Shown here: positions 22,755 through 64,000 of the stretch, piece after piece
Position numbering within the stretch: position 1 is the first letter of the stretch
Layout: each line of letters opens with the position of its first letter
DNA from: Psammoneis japonica
Lineage: Eukaryota
Direction of reading: 5' to 3'
Assembly: GCA_008632985.1 (NCBI GenBank)
Contig: QPGO01000010.1
Coordinates: 62,001 to 126,000 of the forward strand
Length of the DNA stretch: 64,000 bases
Position numbers and translations under genes: made by a program
Notes under the pieces: model-generated
The model's input: the letters and a program-made list of their open reading frames with translations, nothing else
The model's database searches: none
What the model was told of the DNA's origin: nothing

Positions 22755-25149
22755 AAACGAGAGTGTAAACAACAAACTACTAGAGGGGTTCATTTGTTTA
22801 CATCTCTTATCTAGCTCTACCGTCTTTAGTCGATTGGTGAATCCGAAGTGTTTTGGGGGTAGGTATTGAGTTCCCACGTATATCCGTGCTCTTTCAAGAG
22901 TTGATTGAACGCGACTGCATGGGGGCAGTAGCCCTACATTGCTTCAAGCTTTGCTCGAAGGGATGGCTGCGAAGCCATACACTGTAGCCAGAATGGCTTT
23001 CTAGAAACGAGAGTGTAAACAACAAACTACTAGAGGGGTTCATTTGTTTACATCTCTTATCTAGCTCTACCGTCTTTAGTCGATTGGTGAATCCGAAGTG
23101 TTTTGGGGGCAGGCATTGAGTTCCCACGTATGTCCGTGCTCTTTCAAGAGTTGATTGAACGCGACTGCATGGGGGCAGTAGCCCTACATTGCTTCAAGCT
23201 TTAGTTGGATAAATGCTGTGTGATGATGCTGTGCACAACACATGCCCAAATGTGTGTGCGGAGAAGGGACTCAACAATTAGCCGAGTGGTGGTTTCTTTG
23301 CCTCTTGGGTTGTTGAGAACCTCCCGCACTCGTTAGGCAGTGTACAGCATTCTGAGTGGTTGTGAGTCTTTACGCTTCCTGAGGTCGCTGGTTCGAGTCG
23401 GCCTCAAATCCAAGCCTCCTTTTCTTTCTCGGCCTGCCCCTTTCCAACCCCATCCGGGGTGGGTGTGCTCAGAACACTGTGCACCACCTGACGAGCACGG
23501 GAGGTTCTCAACAACCCAAGAGGCAAAGAAATTGCCACTCGGCCAACTGTTGAGTCCCTTCTCCGCACACACATTTGGGCATGTGTTGTGCACAGCATCA
23601 TCACACAGCATTTGTCCAACTCTCCCTCTCGCCGCAGGATGGGTCATCGCCATGTGGCGCATCCGCACAGCGGACTCACGAAATTTTGACCATGCACTCC
23701 CTCTGTCAGGCAGGCGGATGGGTCAGCGCCATGTGGCGCATCCGGCCAATGCCAAGGGAGGAGTGGGTTCGAATCCCAACCGCCCACCCCGGATGGGGTT
23801 GGAAAGGGGCAGGCCGAGAAAGAAAAGGAGGCTTGGATTTGAGGCCGACTCGAACCAGCGACCTCAGGAAGCGCAAAGACTCACAACCACTCAGAATGCT
23901 GCATACTGCCCAACGAGTGCGGGAGGTTCTCAACAACCCAAGAGGCAAAGAAGTTGCCACTCGGCCAATTGTTGAGCCCCTTCTCCGCACACACATTTGG
24001 GCGTGTGTTGTGCACAGCATCATCACACAGCGTTTGTCCAACTCTCCCTCTCGTCGCAGGATGGGGTGTCGCCTTGGGGCGCATCCGCACGGCGGACTTG
24101 CGAATTTGTCCATGCACTCCCTCTGTTGGGCAGGCGGATGGGTCAGCGCCATGTGGCGCATCCTGCCAATGCCAAGGGAGGAGTGGGTTCAAAGCCCAAC
24201 CGCCCACCCCGGATGGGGTTGGAAAGGGGCAGGCCGAGAAAGAAAAGGAGGCTTGGATTTGAGGCCGACTCGAACCAGCGACCCCAGGAAGCGCAAAGAC
24301 TCACAACCAGTCAGAGTGCTGCACACTGCCTGACGAGTGCGGGAGGTTCTCAACAACCCAAGAGGCAAAGATGTCACCACTCGGCCAATTGTTGAGTCCC
24401 TTCTCCGCACACACATTTGGGCATGTGTTGTGCACAGCATCATCACACAGCATTCATCCAACTCTCCCTCTCGTCGCAGGATGGGGCATCGCCTTGGGGC
24501 GCATCCGCACGGCGGACTTACGAAATTTTGACCATGCACTCCCTCTGTTAGGCAGGCGGATGGGTTAGCGCCATGTGGCGCATCCGGCCAATGCCAAGGG
24601 AGGAGTGGGTTCGAAGCCCAACCGCCCACCCCGGATGGGGTTGGAAAGGGGCAGGCCGAGAAAGAAAAGGAGACTTGGATTTGAGGCCGACTCGAACCAG
24701 CGACCTCAGGAAGCGTAAAGACTCATAACCACTCAGAATACTGTACACTACCTAACGAGTACGGGAGGTTCTCAACAACCCAAGAGGCAAAGAAATTACC
24801 ACTCGGCTAATTGTTGAGTCCCTTCTCCGCACACACATTTAGGCATGTGTTGTGCACAGCATCATCACACAGCATTTATCCAACTGCTTTGCTCGAAGGG
24901 ATGGCTGCGAAGCCATACACTGTAGCCAGAATGGCTTTCTAGAAACGAGAGTGTAAACAACAAACTACTAGAGGGGTTCATTTGTTTACATCTCTTATCT
25001 AGCGCTACAGTCTTTAGTCGATTGGTGAATCCGAAGTGTTTTGGGGGTATGTATTGAGTTCCCACGTGTATCCGTGCTCTTTCAAGAGTTGATTGAACGC
25101 GACTGCATGGGGGCGGTACATTGCTTCAAGTTTTGCTCGAAGGGATGGC
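22717..25149. repeat. Tandem triplication of a ~250-bp segment spanning the convergent 3' ends of CSN6 and the sulfotransferase gene; copy 2 is interrupted by an insertion
   Basis: actgtagccagaatggctttctag... recurs at 22731, 22981 and 24919. Confidence 0.9.
23203..24885. mobile_element. Non-autonomous foldback-like element with 261-bp terminal inverted repeats, AG...CT ends, a 5-bp TSD (gcttt) and an internal ~421-bp tandem array
   Basis: Ends are agttggataaatgctgtg... and ...cacagcatttatccaact. gcttt lies at 23198-23202 and 24886-24890, while the empty site caagctttgctcg is seen once in copy 1 at about 22945. TIRs are 23203-23463 and 24625-24885; units start at about 23468, 23890, 24310 and 24732. 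Confidence 0.9.
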
Positions 25150-40714: not shown

Positions 40715-41775
40715 CCCATTTTCGTCTTTCCGATCGATGACCCAACATAAAATTTCCGCGTAGAATCTTCGCACCGAAGACTTAATTTCTTGTCCCGGTC
40801 ATGCACATTTTGAAAAAGCATGACCCCACACTTTCGCCAACTCTCAAGCGATGGAATTTCGAAAGCTCCTGTCCAGACTCTCAGCTGTTGCTTTGACGAC
40901 CATCCCCGACGACATCAAAAAGATTAAAACCTGCCTTCATTCAACTTTTTGTCATTCGCTAAGAAATGCCCTCGAATCGAGCATCGACAAATCAGTCAGC
41001 GAAGAATCGCCTGCCGTGATCCGCTTGAGACGAGACACCGCCATTGCTGAAGCGAGATTTCACAAATTTGCACCAGTTTCTTCTTCTCATGGATCTTCTC
41101 ATGGGAAAAAAAAACTGCTGTACAGCACCTCGTCAATGAAGCGAGGAATGATGTTCCCAGCGGCGATTGCAGCCCTGTCCTCACACCTTTTGCCGAACTT
41201 CGCAAACGAAATTGTGATCGTTGCAAGGACACTCGACATCCCTACGAAGCCTCTCCTCATCATGCACGTTGGACCTCCAAAGACAGGCACCTCGACTGTT
41301 CAATGGTGTGCATCTCATCACGGGAAGCAACTCAAAAAGGACAACATTTGCTGTCTTGGTCACGGAAGCATGCTGAACACGCACAACCCATGGAACTTCT
41401 GCATGGGCAAGTTCATGAAAAATGAACCACTTTGCAAAAAGGAATGGACTGATTTGGAACAAGTGATCGACAGCCATTGCGCTCAGCATTGTGCCATCTT
41501 TACATCGGATGAGCTCTTTGGCAAGCCACAGAAAACAATTCTCATGCGACAACAGCTTTGGAGTCACATCATTCGTCTTCAAAGGAAGTGGAGCGTGCGA
41601 ATCGCATTTTCACATCGCCGCTGCTGCAATTGGCTTCTAAGCTCTTGCCATCAGCACCACAATCCAAACCCACGAGAAACAAAGATGCTTCCAAAACAAA
41701 CAGCGATTCGGCGACAAGAGTGGCCTTCAAATGGCGGCAGGGAGACCGTGCCCTTCACTGATCATTTGCGAGCAC
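40715..41775 (+). pseudogene. Truncated, TpA-erased duplicate of the promoter and 5' half of the sulfotransferase-like gene at 43461
   Basis: Colinear with about 43060-44120. QWCASHH..DNICCLGHG and HRRCCNW replace QWYASHH..DNIYYLGYG and HRRYYDW. Homology ends at about 41775. Confidence 0.9.
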
Positions 41776-43460
41776 TTGCGTCATCTACTTTCTTCTTGCC
41801 AGTTGGTTTCCAGATGCATTTTTCATGCCCTGCCCTGCCCCCCCCCCCCCCGTCACGAAGACCTCCTCCCGCCCTCGATCCGACAATGCATCCAGATTTC
41901 ATGGCCGCCAAGAAAGACCATGGGGTTGAGGGGTTGAGAGGCGACAAAGCTGTCATTCTTGCCGGTGCTTCTGTTGTCATTTGCAGGACAGGGCCAAAAA
42001 AAGGCTTCTGCAGGGCTCTCACGACCACTGTGCAAATGAGTCCACACAATCGCTGTGTTTGTCTCTGCTGCAGATGTGATTGTTGGCATCCAAGGAACAC
42101 ACACGGATGGATGGTGTCATTTTCATTTTTGCCAGTTTCCCATGACAGATGCAGAAAATGAAACTCTAATTTCCAACGTTGACAACACACCATGTGTGAT
42201 GTCAAAAAGGAATGGCAGAATGGTTTTTTTTTTTCAAAGAGAGAAGAGGAGCCAATTTGTGCAGCAAACGCGGTTGTTCCCCACCATTGACACAGACTGA
42301 CTGTGCCGTCAGCACCAGCCAGCCATGCAAGTCCATTTGGCAATTGTGATTCCAGTCATCATGCAGTGAGAGTGAGAAAGGATTCAGAATGTGCAACATT
42401 GATGGCAGATGCCACCATGCAGGACTTTTGCAGGGCAGCAACTGGCAAGGAAATGAGCAACAATCCGGGCTCCAATTCTTCTTGTGTCGAGCCAAGCAGA
42501 GTTGTTGTGACGATTGAGACCTGCGAGTGCAAGCTCAAGAAACAAAAAGTGGAGACTTGAGAAGGTGAACAAGCAGAAACAAAACACCAAGCAGTGCAAG
42601 GGGAACAATGCTTGGATCAGCCAACAGAGCCAATTGAGCACAAAACAAAAGTCATGCTGGGCTCTCAGTCAGAACTGTGTTGCAGTGCGTCGTTGCTGCA
42701 TTCCTGCAGCAGCAGCAAAAATTGTCGAATCCAACATTCCAAGTTGGCCTTGAAAGCTGATGTTGAAATGCTGCACCTGGCAATGCACCATGATTCATGT
42801 TTTTTTGCTCATCGCCCACCCAGTCAAAAGCGGCAGGAGAAACACAGAGACCAGGCTTTTGCTGTGTTGCAGCCAGACACTGCTGTGTTTTGGGAATTGT
42901 TTGTCACTGTTGGTTGCTGGCTGCTCTGCTCTAGAACCACAGTCTCTAGCTAAAGTTTGCTCGTAGTAGGCCCTCTGTACCGGTAGAGAGCAGCAGTAGA
43001 GACAAGGAGAGCATTGCAGACAACAATTATTGTGCTGCGGCCTGGACGCCTCCGGGTTAGCCCGTTTTCGTCTTTCCGATCGATGACCATCAAAATTTGT
43101 GTATGGGATTCCCACGTATAATCTTCGTGCAAAGACACAATTCTTGTCCCGGTCATGCATCTTTTGAAAAAGTATGACCCCACACTTTCCCCTCTCAAGC
43201 GATGAATTTCGAAAAGCTCCTCGTCGTCCAACTCTCCCGACGCCGTTGCTTCGACGACCGACCCGACGACCTCAAAAAGATTTTAACTTTCCCTCATTCA
43301 ACTTTGTTTATTATTCGCTAAGAAGTACCCTCGAACGTCGACAGATCAGTCAGCGAAGAATCGCCTTCCGTGATCCGCTTTGAGACGAGAGACCGCCATC
43401 ACTGAAGCGAGATTTCACAAATTTGAAATTTGTACGAGTTTCTTCTTTCTCGTGTAAAAG

Positions 43461-44732
43461 ATGCTGCCCAGTACCTCTTCAATGAAGCGAGGGGTGCTGT
43501 TCCTAGTGGCGGTTGCAGTCCTATCCTTGTGCCTTGTACGGAAAGTAGTAAACGAAGATTTGATCGTTGCAAGGACGCTCGATGTCCCTACCAAACCTCT
43601 CCTCATCATGCACGTCGGACCTCCAAAGACAGGCACGTCGACTATTCAATGGTACGCAAGTCATCACAGGAACCAACTCAAGAAGGATAACATTTATTAT
43701 CTTGGTTACGGAAATATGCGGAACACGCACAACCTATGGAATTTCTGCATGGGCCAAGACAGGAAAAATGAAACGCTTTGCAAAAAGGAATGGACTGGTT
43801 TGGAACAAGTGATCGATAGCCATTACGCTCAGAACCATACAGTGTTTATATCGGATGAGCTCTTTGGGAAACCACAGACAATAAGTCTTGTCCGACAACA
43901 GCTTTGGAGTCACATCATTCGTCTTCAAAGGAAGTGGAGCGTACGAATCGTATTTTCACATCGCCGCTACTACGATTGGCTTCTAAGCTCTTACCATCAG
44001 CATCATAATCCAAACCCACCCCAAACAAAGAAACTTCCATTAGAAAGAGCGATTCGGCGACAAGAATGGCCTTCGAACGGCGGCAGGGAGACGGTGCCCT
44101 TCACTGAGTATTTGAAAGCACATTTGATATCGCCGAGTTTCCGCGAGAACGACCCCAGTATTGTCCACGCTTTGTTGAAGGATAACTTCTCCACAGTATG
44201 GACCTTCAATATGCACGAGCTGTCTAGCGGTGATTTGACACAGGACTTTTATTGCAAAATGATACCCGAGGCAGTGTCGTTGTGCAGGTACCTCCAATCC
44301 GAAACTGAAAGTGTCGAGACACAGAACCCGTCCTCGTCCAAAGAAGGCTACTACGACAGAATCGCTTGGGAAGCGATAAAACGTGGATGGATCAACGCAA
44401 CTCTCCCTCGATTCGTTGTCGGACTTGCCGTCAGAAAGTTTGCGACAAACGAGCTCAACTTGAATACCATGTCTGACTTCCCTTTGAAGTGTCCGAAAAC
44501 AAGTCACATGGAGCAGCTATTGAATATATCGCTAGGCATCGAACGAGCCATAGTGCCGGAATTTTACGCATCACAAAAGGGAGAACTTGGAATGCGAGAG
44601 GAGTTTGCTCACGCCACTGAAACCAACAAGTTCTGCTCAGTGGATGTTGACAAAGCACTACAAGACCCAAGGTGGGAAGTGTTCTTCAAGAATCTTCCGG
44701 AACGTATCAATAGCATGGAAGCAGCAGAGTAG
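43461..44732 (+). CDS. Type II membrane sulfotransferase-like protein
   Basis: TM leader; HVGPPKTGTSTIQ, SDELFG, HRRYYDW and FCSVDV. Confidence 0.8.
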   Translation: MLPSTSSMKRGVLFLVAVAVLSLCLVRKVVNEDLIVARTLDVPTKPLLIMHVGPPKTGTSTIQWYASHHRNQLKKDNIYYLGYGNMRNTHNLWNFCMGQDRKNETLCKKEWTGLEQVIDSHYAQNHTVFISDELFGKPQTISLVRQQLWSHIIRLQRKWSVRIVFSHRRYYDWLLSSYHQHHNPNPPQTKKLPLERAIRRQEWPSNGGRETVPFTEYLKAHLISPSFRENDPSIVHALLKDNFSTVWTFNMHELSSGDLTQDFYCKMIPEAVSLCRYLQSETESVETQNPSSSKEGYYDRIAWEAIKRGWINATLPRFVVGLAVRKFATNELNLNTMSDFPLKCPKTSHMEQLLNISLGIERAIVPEFYASQKGELGMREEFAHATETNKFCSVDVDKALQDPRWEVFFKNLPERINSMEAAE

Positions 44733-44855
44733 ACAGTTACTTATCTTTTGCGACCGCAGGAACTTGGTTCGCGAATAACCAATTTTAACTACTCTATATA
44801 TGATAGTGACGTTTCTATCCCAACAACGTTTGCGTCTGGGTATGTGTCGTTTCCT

Positions 44856-46182: not shown

Positions 46183-46784
46183 TGTGAATGTGAATGCAAC
46201 AGTCGATGAGAGAGCAAAGTTTTGACCCGACAGCAAAGATGAAGAGTGCTCTCTGAACACTTTGTCGTCGAATAATAACGAGGAAAAGCGAAGATGAAGG
46301 CGATTTGGGTGCAGTGGGGAAAAGTGGCGCCTAGTCGATACCCTGCAGAGGCGGCAAAAAAGTGAAGGGAATCGAAAAGTCATTCTCGGTACTAGTCGGT
46401 CATTTTTGATAATTACCTTCGCGACTGAAGACATTTTTTGTTACGCGTCACGATAAATATTCACTATAGCCCTTACTATTGCCCCGTTTGATTTTCTCTT
46501 GTCTGTGAAATGATGCCTGGGTTCTCGTGCCAACAGAACACGACTAAAATCGCGACGCCGGCTCGCCGCAAACCCCACGAAATGCAGTACAAGTTTGACG
46601 TAGCTTTCTACGCGTTGAGACACGGCATGTTCACGCTTCATCACGATCTGCGTTCAAACAGCAAACAGCAACAAAACAACAAACGGAACAACGCAACCTG
46701 ATTTGAGCAAATCGAAATACTAACCGTAAACTGTTTTAGACAGTCGAGTTCCCTGAATAAGCTTCCTGCACAAGTTTTGTAAGG

Positions 46785-48118
46785 ATGGGCGGACGATCTG
46801 AGTTATGCAATTCGTTGATAGGAACAAGCTTTGCCGCAAAGCACTGGTTGTCTCTGGATGTGTGCGGGTTGCTGTGCGTTCGCTCAGTTGTTCCGTTCAC
46901 CTGTACGCAATGGTTGTCATGTATATATTTGTCATTGCGCATTCTACAATCATGGTGCAGTGGTTGATTTACTTTGGCATGTATGTTCCTCTGGCACTGC
47001 TGGCGCTTAGTAGTTTGTTCATGGCATGGAGTACCGATCCAGGTGCGGTTCCCATGGGTGCCAAGCCTCTGACGACCTTTAAGCGACAAGTATCAGTGAG
47101 TAGCAACGCTTCAAACTCTACGGAAAATAGTAAGGAGCCCACGTGTGTGTCTATAACGAAATCGCCAGCACGAGGAGAACGTCGGTGTCACAAGTGTATG
47201 GACAATTACAAACCACCGCGTGCTCATCACGATTCTGTCACGGGACGATGCATTGTCAAGTTTGATCATTACTGCCCTTGGGTGGGAAATGCTGTTGGCG
47301 CGCTCAATCACAAGTTTTTTGTTCTCTTTATTGGATACACGTGTTGCACGACTCTGGTTAGTTTGATTCTGTTGGTGACGAGATTTGTCACGTGCTCGTT
47401 TGTGCAGTCGAGTTCGGATCAAGAGGAGGACGAGGCGCAGCTGAATGGGGACAATAGCAGCACGGATGCGGATAGTCTGCGCTTCTTGGAGGACTCTCCA
47501 GGAGGTCGTGATGAATGTACCGTCTTTGAAAATGGTCACATTTTCATTCTCATTTTATTGACAATGAGTGTGATCTTTTTCGTTTTTACCTTTTGTATGT
47601 TTTTGGAGCAAATGGATGCCATTTCGGAAAACACATCCAAGATTGCTCGAATGAAACAACGAGTGGGCAAGGCGGGGACAGAGCTGTCGCGTGTGACGCA
47701 TGACTTTAATGAAATGTTTGGTGGGTGCTCACCGAGTCCAACCTGGCATTGGTTCTTGCCTCTTTCGGTCCAGTTTCAACCAACCAAAATGAAATCTGTC
47801 ATTTTGGGATACGAAGAGCCGACATTAGAAGATCTGGAACACGACGTGGAGAACCCAGCTCCTTTGAAGGACGACCAGGAGGAGGAAGAGGTAGACGAGG
47901 AGCTTGAATCGAGTCAGCATTCCAGTCTCTTGGCGGCAGAGCAGCTTGAAACAGAAATGGCAACGGTAGAAAACACACGAGACTCTTCGTCTCTCATGGC
48001 TGCTGCTACCGACGAGGTTCACTTGGGTTCTAGAAAAATAAAGAGCAAGCAAGGCATGTTTCAACGACGATTGAGCGACAATCCCAAATTTGTGGACGGG
48101 ACAAATGAGTTTACATAG
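46785..48118 (+). CDS. DHHC-family palmitoyltransferase (DHYC variant); apparent 1-bp frameshift near 46878
   Basis: TDPG, CHKC..YKPPRAHHDSVTGRCIVKFDHYCPWVGNAVGALNHKFF. The N-terminal MGGRSE...LDVCGLLC is in another frame. Confidence 0.85.
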
Positions 48119-48246
48119 CGGTTTTTCTTCATGTATATGAATGCTCGTAGAGCGAGAGTTAAACTAAGCGAATACGAGCAGTCGGTATTATAAAATGTTT
48201 GGTGCAAAGCGAAGTTGTAGTAGTATTCACGTGTTTATAGGTATGT

Positions 48247-50761
48247 CTACAAGCGTTCTACAACTTTGACGCCCAACAGGTTCATGAGCAGCCGAATTGT
48301 GCCCGCCGTCGCCATGCAAAGCGAAAGGCGGCTCTGTTTGAGCTCTGGTGTTTCAGCATTGTTGACTGAGCAGTTTTCGTAAAACTACATTGAATCAAAA
48401 ACGAGCGAGAGAAGGTGAGAAAGCAAGATGACGCCCATACTACCTAGCAAGATACGTTCCATCAGGCCTTACCTGATTGAACTTCTGGCTCGTTTCGAAG
48501 AGATAATCACAAAGTCGGTTTGGGTACAAGTCTCGCTCAACCTCAAGCAACATGTCCGGGAGTCGAACAAGATTTCGAATAAGCTGAAGCTCCGAGTCAT
48601 GTGTAATTTGAATCTCAGACGCCTCTGGCCACTGCAAAGGCTCATCTGGTGATTGCCCTGTAGCCTTTCGCACGATACCGCAGATACGAGCAAAGGAGTA
48701 AAGCATGTAGGGTGCGGTGTTTCCGTTCAGGCTCAGCATGCGTTCGTAGCTGAATTTGTAGTTTGATTCACGGTTCATGGACAAGTCGGCATACTTTACA
48801 GCTCCGATACCAACAATTTCGGCAACCTTTTGCACTTGTTCGCTCAACTCTGCATCCGGATCTTCCATTCGAGAACGGAGATCCTCACCCGCGATTCTAA
48901 TCGCTTCATTCAGTAAATCCTTCAGCTTGACAGTCTCTCCCGATCGAGTAGCAAACTTCTTTCCGTCCTCGCCTTGCACTAGACCAAAAGGAACGTGTTC
49001 CAGCGAAACGCTTTCTGGAACGAAATGGGCCAGTTTGGCAGCTTCAAAGACCATGGCAAAATGTTGTGATTGACCTGAATCGGTAACGTAGAGAACACGG
49101 TCAGCTTCTTCTCCTCCATCCGAAGCAGCCATGAGAGCCGTTGTCTAATGCAGCGAGATCCGTCGTTGCGTAATTAAAACCACCGTCTGATTTACGAATC
49201 AGCATGGGAAGGGGTGCCATCACGATTGGTGTACTGTTGAATAGCAGTCACGAGAGTTGAAAAGAAAACACGGATGAGAAATACGGTACACCAAGTATAA
49301 GGTAAGAAAAGCTGGGTCGATTCGAGAAGAAACGACCTACCCCTTCAAGGAAGACAGCTGTAGCACCCTCGCTTTCGACTGCAAGTCCCTGCTTCTCCAG
49401 CTCCTCCACAACGTCATTCAAGTAAGGGTTATAAAACGACTCGCCACGTTCCTGTAGACCCTTAATGTCCAATGCATCATAAATCTTTTGGTATTCACTA
49501 CGACTCGCTTCGCACAGTGCTTCCCATGCAGCTAGTGCTTCAGGATTGCCGGCTTGTAGTTTGACAACACCCTCCCTCGCTCGGGTCTTAAAGTCGTCAT
49601 CCGCATCAAAACGCTTCTTGGCGGCCTTGTACAACTCCACCAAGTCGCCCAAATCCACTGCTTCTCCTTCTAATGCCGCAGGATACTCGTCTCTCAGGTG
49701 TTCCACCAACATTCCAAACTGTGTACCCCAGTCACCGACATGATTTAATCGGACAACATTGTGCCCGGCAAACGACAAGACATTGCATAGCGTGTCACCA
49801 ATAATGGTACTCCTCAAATGACCCACATGCATCTCTTTTGCAATGTTTGGTGATGAATAATCCACAACAATCTTTTGTTTGTCGCTTCGCAAGGAACATA
49901 GAGAGGATCGTGATTGAGAACAAGAAAGAAATCGAATGGAATTTGTTGTTATCGGGTCTTCTTACCTTGTTTCAGGAATTGCTAATCTTCCCGTTGCATC
50001 TTTTGCCATGGAACTTACAGCCGACTGCAAGTAGTCCTCTTTGAATTTCAAATTGATAAATCCTGGTCCAGCAATTTCGGGTTCTTCCATAATATCTTTG
50101 AGCTTTGGTTCGAGCGCGTCGACAATTTTAGAAGCACATTCCCTAACAAACAAAACGGGGAGGGTTCGTGAGTGATTGAAAGTATCATGTTGATAACTCA
50201 CGTGTAAACTCAATTACCTCGGATTCATTCCGACTGCTTTGCCAATCCCATGGCGGCGTTGCATTGATAATCCCCAAAGTCTAATCTCGTTGCAGGTGTC
50301 ACCATGGTATCGGTAAGTGCAAAGGGCTTTGCCTGCGCTGCCGCTTTATCGGCGAGAGCCTGCTTTTCTTCTTCCGACATGGAAGGTTCTGCTGGTGCTT
50401 CGTCTTCTTGCTGGTTTTTCTTCTTTTTCTTCTTCTTTTTCGTCCTGTTTAACTTAGCCAGCACGTTGCCGCGTGCCACATCGGCAGGATCAAACAACTC
50501 ATTCAAGGATTCCAACACTGCATCTTGTACATACCCCATACCTTTGAGCAGAGATGCTGATTCTGTACTCGTCGTTGACATGCATAATCGAGACACGGAC
50601 CTTATCGACTTGGTTGCCAGGAAACTGCATGACTTTGTTGCTCTTGTCGTTGTCGTCGATCCAAACGCTTGAACAGCACAACGCCGTGTCGATTGAAATG
50701 CCAGTACGAGAAGCGACGACATGAGGCAACTCTGACACAATTTTACAACGAAAAGTCGCAT
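48247..50761 (-). CDS. argS: Arginyl-tRNA synthetase, organelle-targeted, multi-exon
   Basis: [74 protein letters not shown] and FYENC. N-terminal signal plus transit-like leader; stop at 48247. Confidence 0.95.
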
Positions 50762-51775
50762 CAGAAGAATTCAAGTGATATTACAACTGCTTCTCTTGAC
50801 AATCAATTCAGTTCCTACAGCGCTGTCACTTCTATGATGATGTGATGATGGATCATCGCTCTGTTCCGAGAAAAATGAGGCAGAGAGAACGGTCGTCTGT
50901 AGTTCGTACGTAAAACATACGTCAGCATTGTACAGAATTCGAAAGAATAGGTTATGAGCTCTTTTTCCTCATCCAATCACATCGGCCAACGCCACATCAT
51001 AACAAATTTAATTATTATATTCATACTTGTATACATTTAGAGAATAGGAAAATTGTGTTTAATTGATTATTATTAGGCTTTGAGTAAGTTTATCAACGGA
51101 AATTCCGTTCATTTATGGGCATCGCAGATTACGACTAATAATAAGAGTAATCAACAACCTACAAAATGAATAACCTTTTATAAAATTGGAGGGACATTTG
51201 TCATAAATAATCTTCTCCGTTACTTATATAATTTTTCGATGTGCTTTCTCGATTCTATTTAACGAAAATCAGGTGACTGAAATTCGTATTTAAGGAGTCT
51301 GATATGTCTGAAATTTGCTATCGCCCGCTATTTTGTGCGAGCAAACCCACAACGAACGGGAAGCGGGGCACACAAAGAGATTGACAGCCGCACCGTATCG
51401 CGTTTTCGTGTGTGGTTGCTGTTGAGTGTGTATTGCGTCTATCGCGTCGTTTGGCATTCAAGGGTGATTTGTATCCGCTGTTTCTTGATTTTATCGCTCT
51501 ACTAGAGGCGGTTGTTTCAGAGTGATTTGCATCGATACGGCACTGCATTGCCTCCGTGTAGAGAATCACGTAGCTAAATTTTTCGCCAGTATCGCAAAAG
51601 AGAGGGACTGATAATTTTCCTGTGACACACGACCACTCCGCGCAGAGATTGAAGAAGCATCGACGTCTGCTACTCCAAAGAACACTTTTATTCGAGGGAG
51701 AAGGCTACAACGATCTGTTACACTACTACTTGACTTTAAACTTACACAAGGACTTGCACCGTTCCCCCGCCAACC

Positions 51776-53687
51776 ATGGGAACGAGTTCTTCTAATACGT
51801 CAGAGCGTCGAAGTGCTTCTGGCACAGGCAACGGCGCATCTGCTTCGGGGACTTCGTCGACTCAAAATGCTTCTCGAAGAACAGGCAACGGCTCTTCTAA
51901 TAATAACCGCACTCCTGGCTCTCACTTGGTGTTGAATCGTCCATACAACGTGGTGGAACGGTCTACCACCACTGCGAATGTGTTGGAGTCGCAGTCTTCG
52001 CTTCGTTCTTCGCCCTCTTCCAACGCTCCTCCGGTGACATCGACAGAAGTACCAACGACCTGCCTCAATCCAGCGTCAGACATTAATTCACGCCTTGATA
52101 CGCAGGTAGAAGTCAAGGTGTACCCTTGCAACAACAGTCAGAGCGGCAGTGGGAAGAAGAAGTTTACCTCCTTCACCGTCAAACCCGAGGGGGTCATTAT
52201 TCAAGGCTCAAATCGCAACCGCAACAATTCCATCGACTTGGGCACCGAGTATGCCACTCATATCGGACGTAAGCTCCAGAGATACGAGCTTTCGGACAAT
52301 CGCGCTTGTCAGTTGCTCGTGACGGCACACGCCAAGTCCTTTTGGGTCGTCCCGGCTCCGGAAGCCTTTTCGAGGCATTCGGGAACGTGTCGTCTGCTCG
52401 GAGATCGCAAGCACCCTCCCGCGCCCCATACCCTTCAGGTGGGCGACTTTTTGAGGGTAGGATCGGTTGGAGTAGTGGTGATTGAGACTCATGATGGAGT
52501 AGAGAACAAGGCTCTATCGGAAGAGCGCATTCAGAAAATTATGAAGGACACTACTTCGACCAATCAAGCCTTTTTAGATTTGGGAGAGACTGACGGAGGT
52601 AAGTGCAAACTCGAGTTTGACGTGGTGTGCTGTTTTGATAATGTGGTACCATTCACTGATGAGTTCTTTTTCATTTTCAGAAAACTCGGATGACGATTCC
52701 ATGGCTGGCGAGACTCTTCAGATGCCGAATGCTGATTCTGGCATCAACGAGTCTCCCGTCTGCTACATGTGCTTTGACGAGCAGGATTCGGAAGAGAACC
52801 CCCTCATTACGCCGTGCAAATGCATCGGCGATACTCGCTTTGTTCATGTCGATTGTCTTCGGAAATGGCACTCGGCTGAAGCAGACAACCAGGTCTGCTT
52901 TCTGTCTTCGGTCGATGCCACGTGCTCTGTGTGTAAGAGCACCTTCAAGTCTGACTTTAAGTTGAAGGATGGCCGGCTAGTCAAGCTATTCAAGTCTTCT
53001 TTGGAGCCTCCATATGTCTCTCTTCTTGTTGCGACCAAGCACGAAATGGCGCAACGTCTCTTCAACACTAGGTTTCAGCTCTCCTTTAGTACCTTGATGA
53101 AACCAGATGGGCGCAACGGCACTCGCCCGCTTTTGCTTGGACGTTCTTCTGGATCCGACATGGTTCTGGATTACCGCACCGTGTCTGCTCGCCACGCCAC
53201 GATCCGCTTCAAGAATGGCGAATTCATTTTCACGGATGCTGGCTCCTCTAACGGATCATATCTCTACCTTCGCAGACCGGTAGAGCTTACTCCTTCTCAG
53301 TCGGTTCAGTTCCGTCTTGGTCGCTCCATGATTTCCATGAAGGTGGTGAACAAGTGGAACCGCCGATTCTTGAGGGCGGTACGTAGGACTACCAATTCTC
53401 ATTCGTCCGTGCAGGTGGATCGTGACGACCTGTCCATTGGTTCCAACGACGACGACATTGTGCGAACCGATGGACGCACGGGGCAAATCACCAAGACGGG
53501 GCCCCGTCGCACTCGCGATAGCATCATGGCGTCTCTTCCGCCACCGGGAATGCTGTCGCAGCAGACCCCGCAGCATTTGGATTTGTTGTATGCCTTGGCT
53601 TATCCCAAGCGCATGGAGAAGCAGGTTCGCCCAAAGATTGTTGAAGAAACAAAGGAGGAGGAGCAGGATGTAGTTCAAGTTGCCTAA
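51776..53687 (+). CDS. FHA plus RING-variant (C4HC3) domain protein, putative E3 ligase; 2 exons
   Basis: Intron 52599-52680 (gtaagt...ttcag). RINGv CYMC...PCKC.G...VHVDCL..W...CSVC and FHA LGRSS...VSARHA...DAGSSNGSY. Confidence 0.85.
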
Positions 53688-53966
53688 TTAGGATTGTATG
53701 ATGTTTTGGAATAATGACGTTTAATGAATATATATTGTTCTTATGCAATGAGAAAAGTGGGTAATAGTTAATGCAATCGTACGAACAAGGGGCAGTTGTC
53801 ACGCGCAAGATTGTAGGCTGTGCGCGCGAAATTTGAAATAGTTGTGGCGCCGCATTCGGGGGTGGTGGTGGGTTTTTGTCAACTTCTAGGCACGACATCG
53901 ATGTTGTAGGTAGACAGTCAGTTGGCATGTTGTCTGGAAGGGTGCGAGTCAGTTGGGCGGGGTCAT

Positions 53967-54960
53967 TTAGTGTCTGCACAGGGACAGACCAGCTCCGTCT
54001 TCCCACTGGGGTCGTCTGGAGCTGATTTGAGAGGAGGGAGTGCGGGATCCCCGGAGGCAACGGTGAGTCGCCCGGACTGTGGTGACACTCATTCTCGCAT
54101 TGACGTAGCCGCATGCTTCAGAGTGTGGCTTTTGCCATTTGTCTGATGGTCTCCAGGCCATCTTGCGGAGCATTGCCTTGGCTTCTTTGCCAAAGAGTCC
54201 GTCGCATGACACTGCGAAGGGCGTGAAATGATGGCGTTGCTCAAGACAGGGCTTGAGGCACTTGCGCTTTTTCTCCCGTTCGTGCATTGCTGGGACATCC
54301 TCTGGTGTTTTGGACAGGCATGACTTCAGGTCCGTGTCGGGAATGCGAACATCCGTCACCATGTCTGTCCTTCCATCCCAGAGTCGCATGCCGAGAAGGT
54401 CGCCGCGATCGCCATCCTTGGACTTGTTGGAGTCAGTGTTTCCTGGGGAGCTGGTGGGGGGTGGGGGTGCTTGAGCTTCCTGTGCTGCAACCAGCAGGGT
54501 TGATTGGAGGTTCGTCGCGCACGTGGGAAGGTTTGCAAGCCTTGCCCATTGGGTCGCACCTGGGTTGTCACGGACTTCATCGTGTCGTGAGATGACTGGG
54601 CCGCCCTTCTTGCACTGAAGAGCATGGTTCATTGTGAATTTGCATCCACATCCATCGCAGTGCTCCGGGAGGTCCGGTGGAGCACTGCCATGCTGCAGGA
54701 AGAGCGCATTGCGGAACTCTTGGCATGAGAGTTCTGTGCCATTCAGTGTCGAAGGGCATGCTGAGAGCCACGTGCCTGTCTTGGTGCTGCGCTTGACAGC
54801 TCTGGCCTGGAGGTCAGGCAGGGTCCTGAGGATTGTTTTGAGGGTCTCCCTGTGCACTGTGACCTTTCGATTGGCCACTTCTTGTCAGGCTTCTTTTCGC
54901 AACAACGACATCCTACGATCGAGTGCGGCATGCTGTGAGCATTGTGACAGATTCTCAAGT
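53967..54960 (-). mobile_element. 3' part of a non-LTR retrotransposon with a zinc knuckle and restriction-like endonuclease (CRE-like), TpA-erased
   Basis: GTWLSACP..NGTELS..EFR, CDGCG..F...HAL.CKKGG....RHD, RGDL, DVR, EKKRK(C), FTPF..S.DG and RATHRCLRGSR. Positions expected to be Tyr read Cys or His. Confidence 0.8.
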
Positions 54961-55609
54961 TGCACCGGTGGCAACTAATGGCCTTCTTGCAGCACTTGCC
55001 GGTGCATCCACCACGCACACACCCATTGTTGCCAAAAATTTGTGTGACACCCCCACTTTTTTCACTCTTCCATGACCGGAAAAATGCCTGAAGACCGCAC
55101 CTGCTGCTGTGCCGGTGTCCGCTGGCCACCGGCACGGTGAGCATGCTTTGCACTGGCAAGAATCAATCTGATCTCTGTGTCTTTCATGGGGATGATGGTT
55201 TTAGTGAGTCATTGTCCATGATCAACACGGGCTTCAAATTTTTTGCACCGGCAGAGCTGTGTGCTGTGCTGTTGGAAATGGTGGATTAAAAGTCCAAGCA
55301 CCGAAATTAGATGGCATGAAGAAGATGCTTGTGCCAGCGCTCATGTGCTCCACGTGAAGCACTGAAACTGCCGATGGAAGCAGTCATTGTTCTCTTTTAA
55401 CTCTTGGAAAGCATTGTGACAAGGAGCTTGTCTGTTTCACCCTCAGGGTCAGACCTTGGAGGACTGAGGTGGCTCTGGAACAGTCACCAGAAGGACAAAT
55501 TTCAACAGTTGAAAGAGAACCATCCAGCTGAGAGCTGCAAAAAGAAAGCAAGAAAGAAAAGAGTCATTCTCATGTTGTGTGAGATGTTTTGCTGCTTTGC
55601 CATTTCATC

Positions 55610-56270
55610 ATGAGTGGAAGAGGCAGAGGCAGAACTGGTGATGAAAGCCAAGGAAGAGGACCCTCAGGAAGGGGCAACAAGAGTGGCAAGCAAAGCCACA
55701 AGGGCATCAATGATTGTGTCTGCTGTGTTGGGAGTGCCAAGCAAGCATCTAATTTTCAGATTGCAGCTGAGTTCATCATCAACTACATTGAAAAGACTTG
55801 TGAGTTTGGAAATGACAATGCAACTGCACTCAACACTTGCACTCCATGTGACATGAGTTCCAAGAAGCCGACTTTGCAGGTCAGCTTGACTGGAGATGAC
55901 AAGGCGGAGACGTGCCATCAAACAAATGGCACAAAATTGAGTTCAAGATTGAATTTGATGCTCACATTAAGAGGACTCAGACTTGTGAGAACAACCTCAC
56001 AAAGGCTTGTGCTTGCTCTGGGAGAGATGCTCCAAGGCCATGAAGAACAAGATTCAAGCAAGAACCGAGTTCCAAACCAAAATTGAAAACAATCCCATTG
56101 AATTGCTCAAGGCCATTGAGGAGCATGCATTGAACTGTCAAGAGCACAGGCATGACATGGCTGTCATCTCAGATTTAATGAGAGCTGTGCTGGAAACAAG
56201 ATCGTGCCAAGAGATTCACCAGGGTTGCAAGAGACATCATGAAGCCTCACATTGGAGGACCGATTGTAAA
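55610..56270 (+). mobile_element. Decayed gag-like ORF of a Ty1/copia (diatom CoDi-like) LTR retrotransposon, TpA-erased
   Basis: RG-rich N-terminus; DCVCCVGSAKQASNF...EFIINYI and LLWERCSKAMKNKI..R..F...IENNPIELLKAIEEHALNCQE, resembling diatom copia gag from memory; frameshifted. Confidence 0.65.
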
Positions 56271-56341
56271 ATGTAGCTATTTGCGACAAAATCCTACGGA
56301 ACTTTTGGTTTGCTTCCACAGTGAACTGTGGACAGGACGAC

Positions 56342-57760
56342 TCACGCCATTTTCTTGAAAAAGGATTCCCACCGCTCGTCTTGGCTAAAAGTTGTTTCTA
56401 CATCGACGGAACAAAACTTGTGATCCTCAACAGCCTTATGAAAGTTGGCGTCGAGTTCAGCTTTGCGGCTCAACCATAAATCGGGCAACATTACTCTTTC
56501 AATTTCGAGCGACCTGTTCAAAAACGTCTTTGTCTCCTCGCCCGACAAGCACAGCAGCGGAAAGTCCTTTAGATAGGTATAGTTGAGTGTACTCGCGCTG
56601 AACTCTTCAATTCTTCCAATCACATCCGGACGAAGCAATGTCTTGTTAATGAAACCTCTTTGGAAAGCACCGACCGCGAGCAAATCAAAATGTGGAGCCT
56701 TGGCTGACGAAGGATTCTTTCTTGGCATTTTTTTCGCATCACGAGTCGTTCTCAGGTAGTGGCAGAGTTTTGCTGCCTCTGGAATCATTCCACAGTAAAA
56801 GTTTTGAACCAAGTTAGTACTTTGGTGAAAATCAAAAACTCGTACCGAGGTAAAGCGATCATCCCACCACTTCTTGAGCAAGATGGGGTCGTGCAGGACA
56901 ATATCTACGCCACTGTGGCGTCTCCCGTTGACTTTGTCGCCTCTCCATAGTTGCGTTAGCCAAGTGGGGAATGGTAACACCATTCTTCCGCCCAAACCGG
57001 GCCAGGAGTCACGTCGCGAGTAACGAATGTTTGGTGTCCCTTGTCCGCCGACTAATTTCGGGTTCATCTTTTCAAAATACTTAGACAGCACCCACTCGTA
57101 GTACCTTCGATAAGTAAAAATAACACGAACGTCCCATCGCTTGAGAATCGGTTCTAAAAACTTCTCCCAAAGATGTTCCTGCGTCATTAGCATACTCCCA
57201 AACAGCTCATCCGATACAAAAACAGTGTGGCTCTGGCGACGATGATTCTCGACAGATCTGGCAAAGTCCGTCCATTTCTCGCCGCACAGGGTATCGTTTT
57301 TGAGACTCTTTTCCGCACAAACGTAATGAAGATCGTGTAGGTTCCGACCTTTTCCGGAGTGACCGAGATAGTAAATGCCGTCGGCTGCGAGTAGCGTGTC
57401 AGCATGATGTGTCGCAATCCACTGAATAGTAGACGTGGCGGTCTTTGGAGGTCCTACGTGAAGAATAAAGAGAGGCTCCAATGCTGTAGTATTCCTAGCA
57501 ATCCCCCCAAGGAACTCGTTCTTGAGCACAAAAGATGAGTTTGCTGATGTTCCGTGGAGGGCGGTGTTCAAAATGGGTACAGCCTCGTCTGTTGATGAGT
57601 TCGTACGACTTTTAATCGTCAGTGATAAATTGAGAAAGAACTGCAGCAGACAGAAAGGCAGAGTGGCAGCTACAAGTATACGAAGGAGGCGCATTGTTCT
57701 AACCATCGATGGTTGTCGGCGAGAGCTGTATGCAGACTGCAGATGACGGGGTCGGTCCAT
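56342..57760 (-). CDS. Type II membrane sulfotransferase-like protein
   Basis: TM leader; LHVGPPKTATSTIQ, SDELFG, YRRYYEW and FCSVDV. Confidence 0.8.
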   Translation of the reverse strand: MDRPRHLQSAYSSRRQPSMVRTMRLLRILVAATLPFCLLQFFLNLSLTIKSRTNSSTDEAVPILNTALHGTSANSSFVLKNEFLGGIARNTTALEPLFILHVGPPKTATSTIQWIATHHADTLLAADGIYYLGHSGKGRNLHDLHYVCAEKSLKNDTLCGEKWTDFARSVENHRRQSHTVFVSDELFGSMLMTQEHLWEKFLEPILKRWDVRVIFTYRRYYEWVLSKYFEKMNPKLVGGQGTPNIRYSRRDSWPGLGGRMVLPFPTWLTQLWRGDKVNGRRHSGVDIVLHDPILLKKWWDDRFTSVRVFDFHQSTNLVQNFYCGMIPEAAKLCHYLRTTRDAKKMPRKNPSSAKAPHFDLLAVGAFQRGFINKTLLRPDVIGRIEEFSASTLNYTYLKDFPLLCLSGEETKTFLNRSLEIERVMLPDLWLSRKAELDANFHKAVEDHKFCSVDVETTFSQDERWESFFKKMA

Positions 57761-58029
57761 CGTTGATCTGTCGTTTGAAATTTGTGAGCGTCCCCTGTTG
57801 ATGAATATATATTATTTATATCTACGGTCGTTCACAATTTATTTCAAAGTTTTATATTCAGTACTGTAGAAGACTAACAGTTCTTCCATCTCGAGGCTCA
57901 CAAATTCACAAAACACCGAATTATGATGAAAACTCAAAGGAAATGCGGCACCGAACTCCTTATTACCCTTCTCAACGACTTTTAATAAAGCTTTTTTCCA
58001 GTTATGAAAGGAGATGAAAATTTTCTTTA

Positions 58030-60126: not shown

Positions 60127-61729
60127 GGTAATAGCTAAGACGCAGTGCAAGTTGATTTCGCAAACTGTTCACTTTTTTGTGCATCGATGCGTCCAAAACG
60201 AGGGTACTTCACCAATCTTTTGCGATTTTGTTGCTCCGCTGATTTCTCGTGAATTTGTGTGAGGAGGGTCCCGCGGCACCCACCGCCATAAACAATGCTT
60301 CTCTGGTACGATTTTACGTGCTCAACGGGCAAATCCCGAACATGATGACGTAGGTTGAAATGGGGCAATATTGATTTTGTATATTTACAAATGTTCAGAT
60401 CATTAGGAAATGGTATTATTTGAGAAAAGAAGAATCCTGTTGGGCCTCTTCGCGCGTTTTTGGTGCTCTTTGTCGGCGGCAGTTCTGGCTAGAGTTCAAA
60501 AAAAAATGCGGAGATCAGATGATGGCGACGATGACCGTGGCTTCTGGCCTGTCCCGTGGTTCTTGCGAGGATGGTGGCACAGGCCAACGCAAGAGAACAC
60601 AAACCCACCACACTTCTGATCACTCATTGATCAAAAAATTGCTCATGAGAGGCAGTGTGGCACCGCCACCATGCAGCCGCTTCCGAGCCGCTGGAACCGC
60701 CACCACGTTTCATTTTTCTGTGGGGGGCTCTTGCAGTTGGCCTTGGTGCTGGTGTTGAGTTTCTGATGACTTGCCAATGAATCCCAACAAAGGCTGTTCT
60801 GTGAAGCACGAGAAAGAGAGCTGCGGTGTGCACTCATTTGCAACAAAAGCCGCTGTGCAGTGTCCAATTGTTGGCGCGGAGACAGGCTTCCACTGTGACC
60901 AGCATCCAGCATGCCACATCGCGTTGAACACAACATCACACCACCATTCTTTGTGGAGATGGATCAGGGAAGTTCCCACACATGTCATGCATCAGGCGGG
61001 TGTTTGCCCGCAGCAGCATGGCTGGTCACGGCAGTCTTTGATGAGTGACAGAACACCAAAGGTCAATGAGGATGGTGGCATGACAGACTCCCCAAGCACT
61101 GGGACTGTGATGACAAAAAATCAAAAAATGCAAAACATCAAAAAATCCTCAACAACATCAAGTGGTTGTGAGAAAGGCAGTTGACGAGGAGGTCATTGTC
61201 AGAGACAACAAGATCGAAGCAACTCATTCATTGTCAGCACAAAGAAGCAGCCATTGATGTCACACACATTTGCAATGAAGGATTGTGCACAAAATTAGCA
61301 TGGAACCCAAAGGCAAGCCATGTGTCACGTGCTCATTCCACGTTGGCATTCGAGTTGACCTTGATGATGCCACGGTTGCATGCAGACAACAAGAACTCGG
61401 GCAGATCCAGCAAGGATGATTTTCAGATAGAAGCGGTTGACACCAGAGTGCAAACAAAACTCGTCAGACTTTTTAAGTTGACAGTGCAGTGTGCTGCGCA
61501 TTCAACAATGTGGTCTTGACTTGACAATCTCTGTGAAGTGTTCACATTTGATGGTGCAATTCTGTCCACTGCATTCTAGTGCATTGTCTTTGGAAATTCT
61601 TTTGCCGGTTTGAAACTGACTGCTTGCAAGCATCTGTTGCACTCCAGCACTTCTGGCAATGTGTCTTTGTGATTGGACAAAAAGGATTCAACTGCCTCAA
61701 TGGCCAGCAGTGCACAGGCAGCATGCAGG

Positions 61730-62205
61730 CTCCCACCACCACCAGTGCTGCAGCAGCAGTGCACAGGGAGGACCTGCTGCCACCAGTGCCAGTGGTGTGC
61801 TGTGCCGGCATGGGCTCCATCCACCACCAGTGCCAGCCACAACCCAGTTCCCACTGCCACCAGTGCCAGCAGCAACCAGGCTCGACTGCCGCCAGTGCTG
61901 GTGGCAAAAAGATTCCAACCACCACAAGTGCCAGCAGCATGCAGAGGCACCCACAGCCACCAGACAAAAAGGCTCCAACCAGCTCAAATGCTGGCAGTGC
62001 ACACGCTCCAACTGCCTGGACCAGTGCCAGCAGCTGTGCAGGTTTCCACTGCCACCAGTGCCAGCAGCAAAAATGCTCTGACCATCACAGGTGCCAGCAG
62101 CAGATGAAAAAGCTCCAAATGCCTTGATTGCTGGCAGTGCACACGGCCCAATGCCTTGGCCAGTGCCAGCAGCTGCACAGGTTCTCACCACCACCAGCAG
62201 CTCAA
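61730..62205. repeat. Degenerate minisatellite (core ccaccagtgccagcagc)
   Basis: The core or variants recur about ten times between 61735 and 62200. Confidence 0.8.
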
Positions 62206-62397
62206 AACAACAGATGAGCAGTTGCAATTTCTGACACACTGACAAAAATGGGAAAACAGTGTGCCTTGCTTGTCAATCAAGCACTCTCCAAGGCCAGCTG
62301 TCAACCAAAATGGGGGAATCTGCATGCCTTGGCTGTTGGGAACAGCGTGGGCACATCTGCGCCATTTCGTGAGAGCTGTGGGGACATCATTGCCTTC

Positions 62398-62678
62398 AGT
62401 CTTTCTGGATCTGGACATGAAACTGGAGAAGACAGATGCACCATCAGCAAGGGCATCAAAAACCAATGAACCTCTTTTTGCACATGCCTTGTTTGAAGTG
62501 TGTCATTTGTGGCAAGCATCATTTCAAGTGTGAGCTGTGGGAACAAGCACTGCCTGCAGTCTTTCTGGTGGGATCTGGGCACAAAAATTGGAGAAGACAG
62601 GTGAATTGTCAGCGCACATTAAAAACCAATGAACCTCTTTTTGTGCATGCCTTGTTTGAAGAGTGTCACTTGTGGCAA
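62398..62678. repeat. Two-copy ~163-bp tandem repeat
   Basis: agtctttctgg...ggagaagacag...aaaaaccaatgaacctctttttg...gccttgtttgaag...tgtggcaa occurs twice. Confidence 0.85.
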
Positions 62679-64000
62679 CTCACAATGATTCTGGGTGCAA
62701 AACTCTGACACACGCAAATGTGCCAACACTGCAAAAAAGTTTTTGTGATGTGCGTGCACACAACAACATGCTGGCTTGGCATTCTGGATGATGATTCTTT
62801 GATGTGGCAGATTTGTGACAGCACACTCATTGTCATGAAACTCAAGCAATGCCCCAATCAAAACCCATCTTGACCAACCAGAAGGACAGCAGGGGGGTCT
62901 TGCCACATGTTGAGCTGCTGTCATGGCCAATGAGGCAAAGTCTTTCACCACCATGGCAGGTTGTTAATTTGCAGATTTGCAACCACACATGGAATCCATG
63001 TGAATCACAGCAGCGCATGCTTTGGCTTTTCAACATTTTGGGAGAGGGTGTGCTGTTGTGAAGTGTGCAGAAAATTGTGCATGTAAAAAATGCACTGAAA
63101 ATGCAGCAGACCGACAGGCCATGCAAATCTGGGAAGCATGAAGAAAAATTTAAAATGGAGGGTGGGTCACGTGCGTGCAAAAAGTGGGCTGCACACGTGC
63201 AAACACACGATGTGAGTTGAGGAGGACCAAAGTGGAAACCAAGTTGAATTTGATGACTGTCAAAAGGAAACCAAACCATGCATCACAAAACACAGATGTC
63301 CTCTGTTCTAATTGATGAAATCAAACATTGCACGTGCATTTGATTGAAGCTTGTGCAAGAAAAGCCAGTGAGACATCAGATGAAACACAAAAAAATCTGC
63401 AATTTGTTGAGCACTGTTGCCGGCAGTTTTCAAATTTTGCTTGTCAACAATTTTGCCAATGCACATTAAAAAAATTTACAAAGGAAAGTGGAAACCACTT
63501 TGTTGCAGCCTCTGATGTCAACACACCCATGAATGAGGGCAAAGCAGCAGAGTGCAGCATCACAGCAGACAGCTCACTGTGGTTGATGGCAGCAGCATGA
63601 GCCTGGTTCATGGCAGAAGGCAGATGTTGGAAAAAGGTCTTGCCCAACTCAGAGAGAGGAAGAAAGTGAGGGCAACAGTGCAAGGGGTAAAAAGTGAGCA
63701 CCAGTGTGTGGAGAAATTGCTCAGGAAGTGAAGCTTTTGCCAATGTCATGTCAGCTCCACAAATGGAACCTTCGCTGAATCCCATGCGTGCTTGTCTGTG
63801 GAATGAAAACAGGAGCAGCACCAAAGTTCAAACCCACATGATGGGTTCCCCATTGGTTTGCCCATTGGTGGGACTCAATGGCATCTTAGACTGCATTCCA
63901 AGGATGCACTCCTCATGAGAAAAGGCACCATTTGAGACAGGTGTGGCAAAATGGGCCAGAGTGGTCCCCACAACAAGCGGACCCAATTGGGGTTTAGAAC

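Follow-up and report, generated by a model that had tools for sequence, protein, structure and literature searches.

In the DNA analysed here, 64,000 nucleotides of the Psammoneis japonica assembly GCA_008632985.1 (contig QPGO01000010.1, positions 62,001 to 126,000 of the forward strand; hereafter the window), sharply bounded domains have lost nearly all of their TpA (5'-TA-3') dinucleotides. This raises the question of which TpA sites escape the loss and what their sequence context says about the process that removes the others. Dinucleotide odds calculated per kilobase showed that in these domains TpA was nearly gone and TpG and CpA reached 1.4-2.2 times expectation; CpG was usually also low. 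Across 37-43 kb, 54-56 kb and 61-64 kb the observed/expected (o/e) ratio was 0.00-0.13 for TA and 1.4-2.2 for TG and CA. The values for TA, TG and CA were 0.00-0.01, 1.56-1.68 and 1.88-2.21 in the kilobase intervals from 37001 to 40000, and 0.03-0.11, 1.93-2.08 and 1.75-1.91 in those from 61001 to 64000.

Eroded domains were defined from TA-free runs, which gave seven segments with a total of 16,393 bp (23372-24715, 29685-31595, 34621-35138, 35560-36253, 36587-42932, 54107-56176 and 60491-64000). The remaining 47,607 bp of the window served as the comparison set. The longest TA-free runs measured 3,020 bp (37435-40455) and 1,043 bp (61577-62620), at a median TA spacing of 15 bp. Since the two gaps between segments from 34621 to 42932 are young insertions resembling miniature inverted-repeat transposable elements (MITEs), this region is really one continuous eroded domain, broken only by the two uneroded insertions and containing the 3,020-bp run. 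The domain at 60491-64000, which reaches the end of the window, retained 14 TpA in 3,510 bp. Relative to pyrimidine-purine (YR) steps its TA/YR was 0.016 and its CG/YR 0.063, with o/e values of 0.06 for TA, 0.27 for CG, 1.97 for TG and 1.82 for CA. Ten TpA survived in the domain at 29685-31595 and ten in that at 54107-56176.

An earlier note on this DNA had proposed that the remaining TpA sites are mainly YTAR (Y, pyrimidine; R, purine), the context that is not TAY on either strand. All eleven sites that it cited as examples were present as TpA in the contexts given. In eroded DNA 38 of the 56 TpA were YTAR, 16 were one-sided and 2 were RTAY, as against 356, 1,087 and 562 of the 2,005 TpA elsewhere (YTAR odds ratio 9.8, Fisher p 7.8e-16). 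In the region 60491-64000, on which the note had centred, YTAR accounted for 10 of the 14 survivors.

The contexts were compared by a survival index, in which TA is normalised to all YR steps with the same flanks in eroded and uneroded DNA; this normalisation was used because the flanks persist when erosion replaces TA by TG or CA. The index was 0.635 for TTAA, 0.34 for CTAA/TTAG and 0.116 for GTAA/TTAC, and fell to 0.041 for CTAG, 0.039 for CTAC/GTAG, 0.014 for GTAC, 0.013 for ATAG/CTAT, 0.011 for ATAA/TTAT and for ATAC/GTAT, and 0 for ATAT. Equal survival of all NTAN contexts, with tetramers counted in eroded versus uneroded DNA within the window, was rejected (deviance 108, 9 degrees of freedom (df), p 4e-19). 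The sparing of YTAR held for TTAA and CTAA/TTAG but not for CTAG, of which 2 sites were left versus about 48 expected ancestral ones, a protection no better than that of CTAC/GTAG. Nor did the class behave uniformly, as a two-level model of YTAR versus all other contexts fitted poorly (deviance 43, df 8, p 9e-7). The enrichment of YTAR is far beyond chance, and it is carried by TTAA, CTAA and TTAG, not by YTAR as a class.

To describe this gradation, each TpA was split into two half-sites, one on either strand, and the base that follows the A on its 3' side (position +1) was tabulated. Among 110 survivor half-sites the +1 base was A in a fraction of 0.56, G in 0.25, C in 0.15 and T in 0.03, which differed from uneroded TpA (A 0.22, G 0.23, C 0.28, T 0.27; p 4e-18). 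An enrichment of A at position +2 vanished once it was conditioned on A at +1. In a Poisson model with survival as the product of two half-site factors, the factors by +1 base were 0.84 for A, 0.30 for G, 0.135 for C and 0.026 for T. This per-strand multiplicative model described the ten context classes well (deviance 5.2, df 6, p 0.52). The data thus fit a loss on each strand that is governed by the +1 base, with hazards in the order T > C > G >> A. The preference is not absolute, as the earlier note had also stated. In the run 37435-40455, where about 22 YTAR sites would be expected at uneroded density, 0 were present, nor was TA found in any other context. Together with the conversion of CTAA and TTAG in the foldback units described below, this run shows that YTAR sites are slow, not immune.

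The dependence on the +1 base was also seen in the forward direction, in a pair of paralogues, without the use of survivors. An eroded pseudogene copy (40745..41790, forward strand), inside the eroded domain, was aligned with an intact paralogue (43101..44136, forward strand; open reading frame (ORF) 43458-44732) that served as a proxy for the ancestral state. The intact copy starts 170 bp past the domain edge and lies 2.3 kb from the eroded one. The two are 83% identical in four letters and 91% in a purine/pyrimidine alphabet. Of the 42 TpA of the intact copy, 14 had become TG and 18 CA in the eroded copy, 5 were kept and 5 were otherwise changed; 40 of 61 CpG were kept.

Counted per strand from intact to eroded copy, A>G changes occurred at 33/84 TA, 12/174 AA, 11/124 CA and 7/157 GA; in the reverse direction the counts were 2/20, 11/178, 20/172 and 8/153. 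The forward rates of AA, CA and GA match the reverse-direction background, and the rise is confined to TA. Two uneroded paralogue pairs, taken as a control, gave 5/36 and 10/56 at TA, close to the values of the other contexts and without an excess. Divided by the 3' base, the forward changes were 16/27 for TAC, 12/25 for TAT, 3/19 for TAA and 2/13 for TAG. TAY, named as the preferred target in the earlier note, was hence changed at 28/52 half-sites versus 5/32 for TAR (Fisher p 5e-4). At sites with TAY on one strand only, 14 of 17 products were as predicted (binomial p 0.013), with TG 9 and CA 3 from YTAY, and CA 5 and TG 0 from RTAR. The TG and CA products were interleaved, with 17 runs among 32 products versus 16.7 expected (probability of 17 or fewer runs, 0.61); as there is no clustering by strand, a single processive event on one strand is unlikely. 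In an alignment with three intact paralogues and three foreign homologues, the eroded ORF had Cys in place of a conserved Tyr eight times and His in one case, which shows that the lost TAs were ancestral. The equation of T-A-Y with Tyr codons, as drawn before, agrees with these replacements, but the codon match is a consequence and not a cause.

Copies of a 422-bp unit in a foldback array (23372..24715) provided a second comparison. These units differ almost solely by transitions and are 98-100% identical in the purine/pyrimidine alphabet versus 60-97% in four letters. Both TG and CA products were found at the same foldback site, which requires an ancestral TA, and the two products were mixed within single units. 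Among the eroded copies none of the 14 copy-states of CTAA and TTAG had escaped conversion, in agreement with the earlier remark that CTAA is changed in these units. In three lightly affected 250-bp units all 4 of 4 changes were at R-T-A sites. Segments of the array at 23202-25150 resemble tRNA T-arms by eye, but a reading of the units as tRNA was discarded as ARAGORN and Rfam both gave no match there.

Copy number and erosion were compared by the summed depth of sequencing-run contigs aligned over 36501-56500 with at least 80% likeness. The region 36575-42900 had single-copy depth (about 60). The two MITE-like elements at 35094-35488 and 36209-36602 are each about 395 bp long and end in inverted repeats of 24 bp (21/24 and 20/24 matching), and both are uneroded inside the eroded domain. 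They are rich in TA and CG (TA o/e 0.78 and CG 1.44 over 35094-35533), and the right end of the second (36501-36570) had a summed depth of about 22,000 versus about 60 nearby. The MITE-like family is thus very high-copy and not eroded, and its uneroded insertions suggest that erosion of the surrounding domain is not currently fast. A single-copy domain is eroded, high-copy MITEs are not, and a paralogue 2.3 kb away is untouched; targeting is therefore not driven by repeats. The eroded domain at 54107-56176 is multi-copy in the sequencing run, with a depth of 800-2,300 versus about 57 nearby, which corresponds to a family of 15-40 copies. At 43029, about 100 bp past the domain edge, the window has TTAT and the run contig TTGT, a TA/TG difference that may be allelic or may separate two strains. 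Further places where window and run contig differ in single-copy DNA, inside the domain, read CA/CG or CG/TG (36799, 38397 and 40269).

Loss of CpG accompanies loss of TpA in most domains, and decay by cytosine methylation and deamination explains this parallel conversion of CpG to TpG and CpA. It is a process separate from TpA loss. Among domains that are all TA-eroded, CG/YR varied from 0.028 to 0.249 at a baseline of 0.234, and the highest value belongs to the foldback array, in which TA is eroded and CG is not. The flank dependence of CpG loss was about two-fold (hazards 0.59 for A, 0.51 for T, 0.32 for C and 0.23 for G), that of TA loss about twenty-fold. One TadA-like enzyme for both losses was considered and rejected, as CpG loss lacks a 5'-T preference, W-CG being just about two-fold faster than S-CG (W, A or T; S, C or G). 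The G+C content of eroded domains stayed near 47-50%; the losses of TpA and CpG offset each other.

As an explanation we propose a locus-targeted hypermutation that over the long term would convert TpA to TpG or CpA, by transitions only and on each strand separately. Its rate would be set by the base 3' of the adenine, with T and C fast, G slower and A about ten-fold or more slower; seen from the opposite strand, this is a dependence on the base that lies 5' of the thymine. A TpA would survive only if both strands escape, so that the late survivors would be TTAA, CTAA and TTAG, and enough exposure would remove these too. Of these features, the TpA specificity, the restriction to transitions, the +1 dependence in survivors as in the forward test, the absence of clustering by strand and the separateness from CpG decay are shown by the data. 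The agent may be an enzyme that deaminates adenine in DNA with a preference for a 5' T and a 3' pyrimidine, aimed at silent or foreign chromatin and not at repeats, in the same kind of process as in the alga Bigelowiella natans. Taken as a whole, this combination of TpA hypermutation, a +1 rule and an adenine deaminase appears to us the best explanation and, judged from sequence, a probable one.

Several points weigh against it. An A>G change at T-A-Y on one strand is identical in sequence to a T>C change at R-T-A on the other. In the survivor data the T > C step rests on 3 versus 17 half-sites, and the paralogue pair did not reproduce it (TAT 12/25, TAC 16/27). The composition of TG and CA products by flank, for which an ancestral composition was assumed, agrees for TAA, but neither T > C nor T > G is borne out. 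The uneroded DNA that supplied the frequencies of the ancestral contexts is for the most part coding and poor in TAA and TAG, so that the indices of TTAA and CTAA could be overestimated by as much as about two-fold. For the forward rates there is one pair, in which 42 TA sites are ancestral, and a small number of foldback units; in the latter the product asymmetry was weak, with about 10 predicted versus 5 opposite when counted by copy, which are non-independent. The only eukaryotic ADAT2 shown to deaminate adenine in DNA, that of amphioxus, is described as preferring GAA, not TAY, for A, and TCG for C (PMC10354150).

The symmetry of the two strands bears most directly on a thymine-directed chemistry, in which the T of R-T-A would be modified, for instance by a TET/JBP-type dioxygenase to 5-hydroxymethyl- or 5-formyl-uracil, and then treated as C in reading or repair. 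Thymine, when oxidised, mispairs with G, all our counts are symmetric under strand exchange, and the flanking rule would simply become a preference for a 5' purine on the T strand. The window gives no hint of such an enzyme, however, and the one study to have addressed the signature by experiment puts forward a deamination of adenine instead, in its main text also without proof (bioRxiv 10.64898/2026.01.13.699255); we consider this chemistry unlikely. The expectation in the earlier note that the context could discriminate between mechanisms is borne out in part: it argues against ADAR-like editing and Pol-eta-like repair, while adenine deamination and thymine-directed chemistry look alike. Editing by an ADAR-like enzyme would act on double-stranded RNA from these loci and be returned to DNA by reverse transcription or RNA-templated repair. 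ADARs are described as favouring a 5' U (PMC11276115; also argued in bioRxiv 10.64898/2026.01.13.699255), and the foldback array could form double-stranded RNA. Yet the same description gives a 3' G as favoured by ADAR (PMC11276115), whereas TAG was slow here (2/13 in the pair; survival factor 0.30 versus 0.135 for C and 0.026 for T). Moreover, products on the two strands alternate and form no clusters, the main domain is present in one copy, and none of the 47 eroded-domain ORFs scanned against Pfam held a retroelement domain, which makes this route very improbable.

The motif itself could also come from error-prone repair synthesis, since DNA polymerase eta (Pol eta) produces A>G changes at WA. 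A contribution of this type would raise AA>AG, the check that the earlier note had named, but AA>AG was flat in the pair (12/174 forward, 11/178 reverse) versus 33/84 for TA>TG, and the near-total loss of TA, down to none over 3,020 bp, is unlike a by-product of patch repair. We give this explanation hardly any credence. A context preference might finally be only apparent, if survivors were new TpA formed after erosion or reflected an unusual ancestral composition. Five of the ten TpA of the eroded pair copy do lie at positions without TA in the intact copy, a new TA arose by C>T in one foldback copy, and survivors stand in A/T-rich surroundings. The source tetramers NTGN and NCAN are nevertheless nearly flat at +1 (A 0.26, C 0.26, G 0.24, T 0.24), so that about 24% of new TAs are predicted to be YTAR versus the 68% observed. 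The A enrichment at +2 is gone once +1 is fixed, and the forward and product tests, which make no use of survivors, agree in direction. The absence of a real preference is thus quite improbable.

The closest known system is that of B. natans. According to the main text of the preprint by Mettrop et al. 2026, 230 of 231 de novo mutations in two viral regions of mutation-accumulation lines were A>G/T>C, all on TpA, at a rate of about 6e-7 per site per generation. The target there is viral DNA that is single-copy, silent and integrated, the genome contains 124 clusters depleted in TpA and enriched in CpA+TpG (thresholds <=0.43 for Rho TpA and >=1.52 for Rho CpA+TpG), and the authors propose an ADAT2-like deaminase (bioRxiv 10.64898/2026.01.13.699255). 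In both cases A>G/T>C is nearly exclusive and confined to TpA, yielding TpG and CpA, and the stretches at 37-40 kb and 61-64 kb exceed the cluster thresholds given in that text. The host there is a rhizarian, whereas the DNA here is diatom-like. The targets in the window include host-gene pseudogenes and, unlike the viral ones described for B. natans, carried no viral or transposon domains among the 47 eroded-domain ORFs scanned against Pfam, although heavy erosion may mask homology. CpG is also lost here in most domains. The words 'trinucleotide', 'context', 'flanking' and 'CpG' do not occur in the main text of the preprint, where the +1 rule is accordingly unreported, while its supplement may hold data. 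Literature searches returned no report of the signature in diatoms and the B. natans preprint as the sole report of TpA hypermutation.

Fungal repeat-induced point mutation (RIP) resembles the present process as a domain-wise, transition-only, dinucleotide-specific decay of non-essential DNA that produces pseudogenes. As described in the sources consulted, RIP makes C>T changes, for the most part at CpA, which give rise to TpA, whereas here TpA is destroyed and CpA created. RIP also mutates both duplicates, while here one tandem paralogue and a single-copy domain are eroded and a high-copy MITE is spared. In the pair, CA>TA changes from intact to eroded copy (9/126) were no higher than in other C contexts. 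Fungal RIP was consequently rejected, given the depletion of TpA, the enrichment of CpA and the lack of dependence on duplication.

TadA, ADAT2 and the DNA base editors derived from TadA share the choice of an adenine with a 5' T or U. The native bacterial TadA site is U-A-C-G, which fits TAC only, whereas TAT was hit here at least as much as TAC; the evolved editors differ in being broad in context for A. Hyper-editing by ADAR has A>G changes and a 5' U/T preference in common with the erosion, but its editing is strand-coherent on a double-stranded RNA substrate, whereas the products here are unclustered by strand. The preference of ADAR for G on the 3' side, where T, A and C are less favoured (PMC11276115), was not seen. 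Among those ORFs of the window that were scanned, none had a deaminase domain.

The four-member gene family to which the pair belongs includes the eroded ORF 40824-42161 (forward strand) and two further intact paralogues, 19582-21135 and 56342-57811, both on the reverse strand. It had no Pfam match and shares a conserved motif, HVGPPKTGT(S/T)T, which by eye we take to resemble the loop of sulfotransferases that binds 3'-phosphoadenosine 5'-phosphosulfate. A protein search with the intact paralogue gave just 4 relatives, all distant, and public relatives were 41% identical at best. Apart from two short, old paralogue matches, a purine/pyrimidine self-search of the window with longer words found nothing further.

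Of the 47 eroded-domain ORFs compared with Pfam, one matched above the curated cut-off (PUA_2, E 1.8e-15) and another had two sub-threshold matches. The PUA_2 match marks a decayed ATP-sulfurylase-like fragment (31159-31629, forward strand, with other frames to about 32000), which overlaps the right end of the domain at 29685-31595; split over several frames, it is a host-type pseudogene and no transposon. An intact leucine-rich-repeat (LRR) ORF of 450 amino acids (33068-34420, reverse strand) had a TA o/e of just 0.28, with TG 1.27, CA 1.41 and a normal CG of 0.88. Either partial TpA erosion of a functional gene or spill-over from the adjoining domain may account for these values.

The host DNA of the window is intron-poor and eukaryotic, with 47% G+C, and carries ordinary genes (NB-ARC/TPR, a DHHC palmitoyltransferase, RINGv+FHA, two sulfotransferases and an LRR protein). 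The DHHC ORF at 46802-48118 had 313 relatives; among the 120 listed, all matches with a named organism were diatoms at 34-52% identity, including Nitzschia, Epithemia, Seminavis, Phaeodactylum, Odontella and Thalassiosira, and the best matches had 41-50% identity. By these matches the window thus looks like diatom DNA without a close sequenced relative. Contigs of sequencing run X2 gave no cover on the eroded parts of 36501-56500. Inside the RINGv+FHA gene an X2 contig (depth 420) skipped 82 bases with GT..AG ends (52597-52678); this gene has one short intron, and run X2, listed as 'DNA?', behaves like RNA.

The present results add a second lineage and a flanking-base rule to a recently described kind of hypermutation. 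TpA hypermutation has so far been reported once, from a rhizarian alga, in the literature as far as it was covered; its occurrence in diatom-like DNA extends its reach to a major group of phytoplankton. The +1 rule counts against ADAR-like editing, with its 3' G, and against Pol-eta-like repair at WA, and it predicts how a candidate enzyme should behave on TAN oligonucleotides. A wider proposal, more tentative, is that a chromatin-targeted T-A-Y DNA adenine deaminase may serve as an 'anti-RIP' defence in diatoms and chlorarachniophytes, either shared across or convergent in the stramenopiles, alveolates and Rhizaria. If such a deaminase exists, the order T >= C > G >> A would be a biochemical fingerprint by which to find it. 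Its action would clear silenced DNA of TpA, and with it of TAA and TAG stops, Tyr codons and TATA-like elements, while leaving the G+C content unchanged, and a DNA adenine deaminase of this kind would also be of interest to work on base editing.

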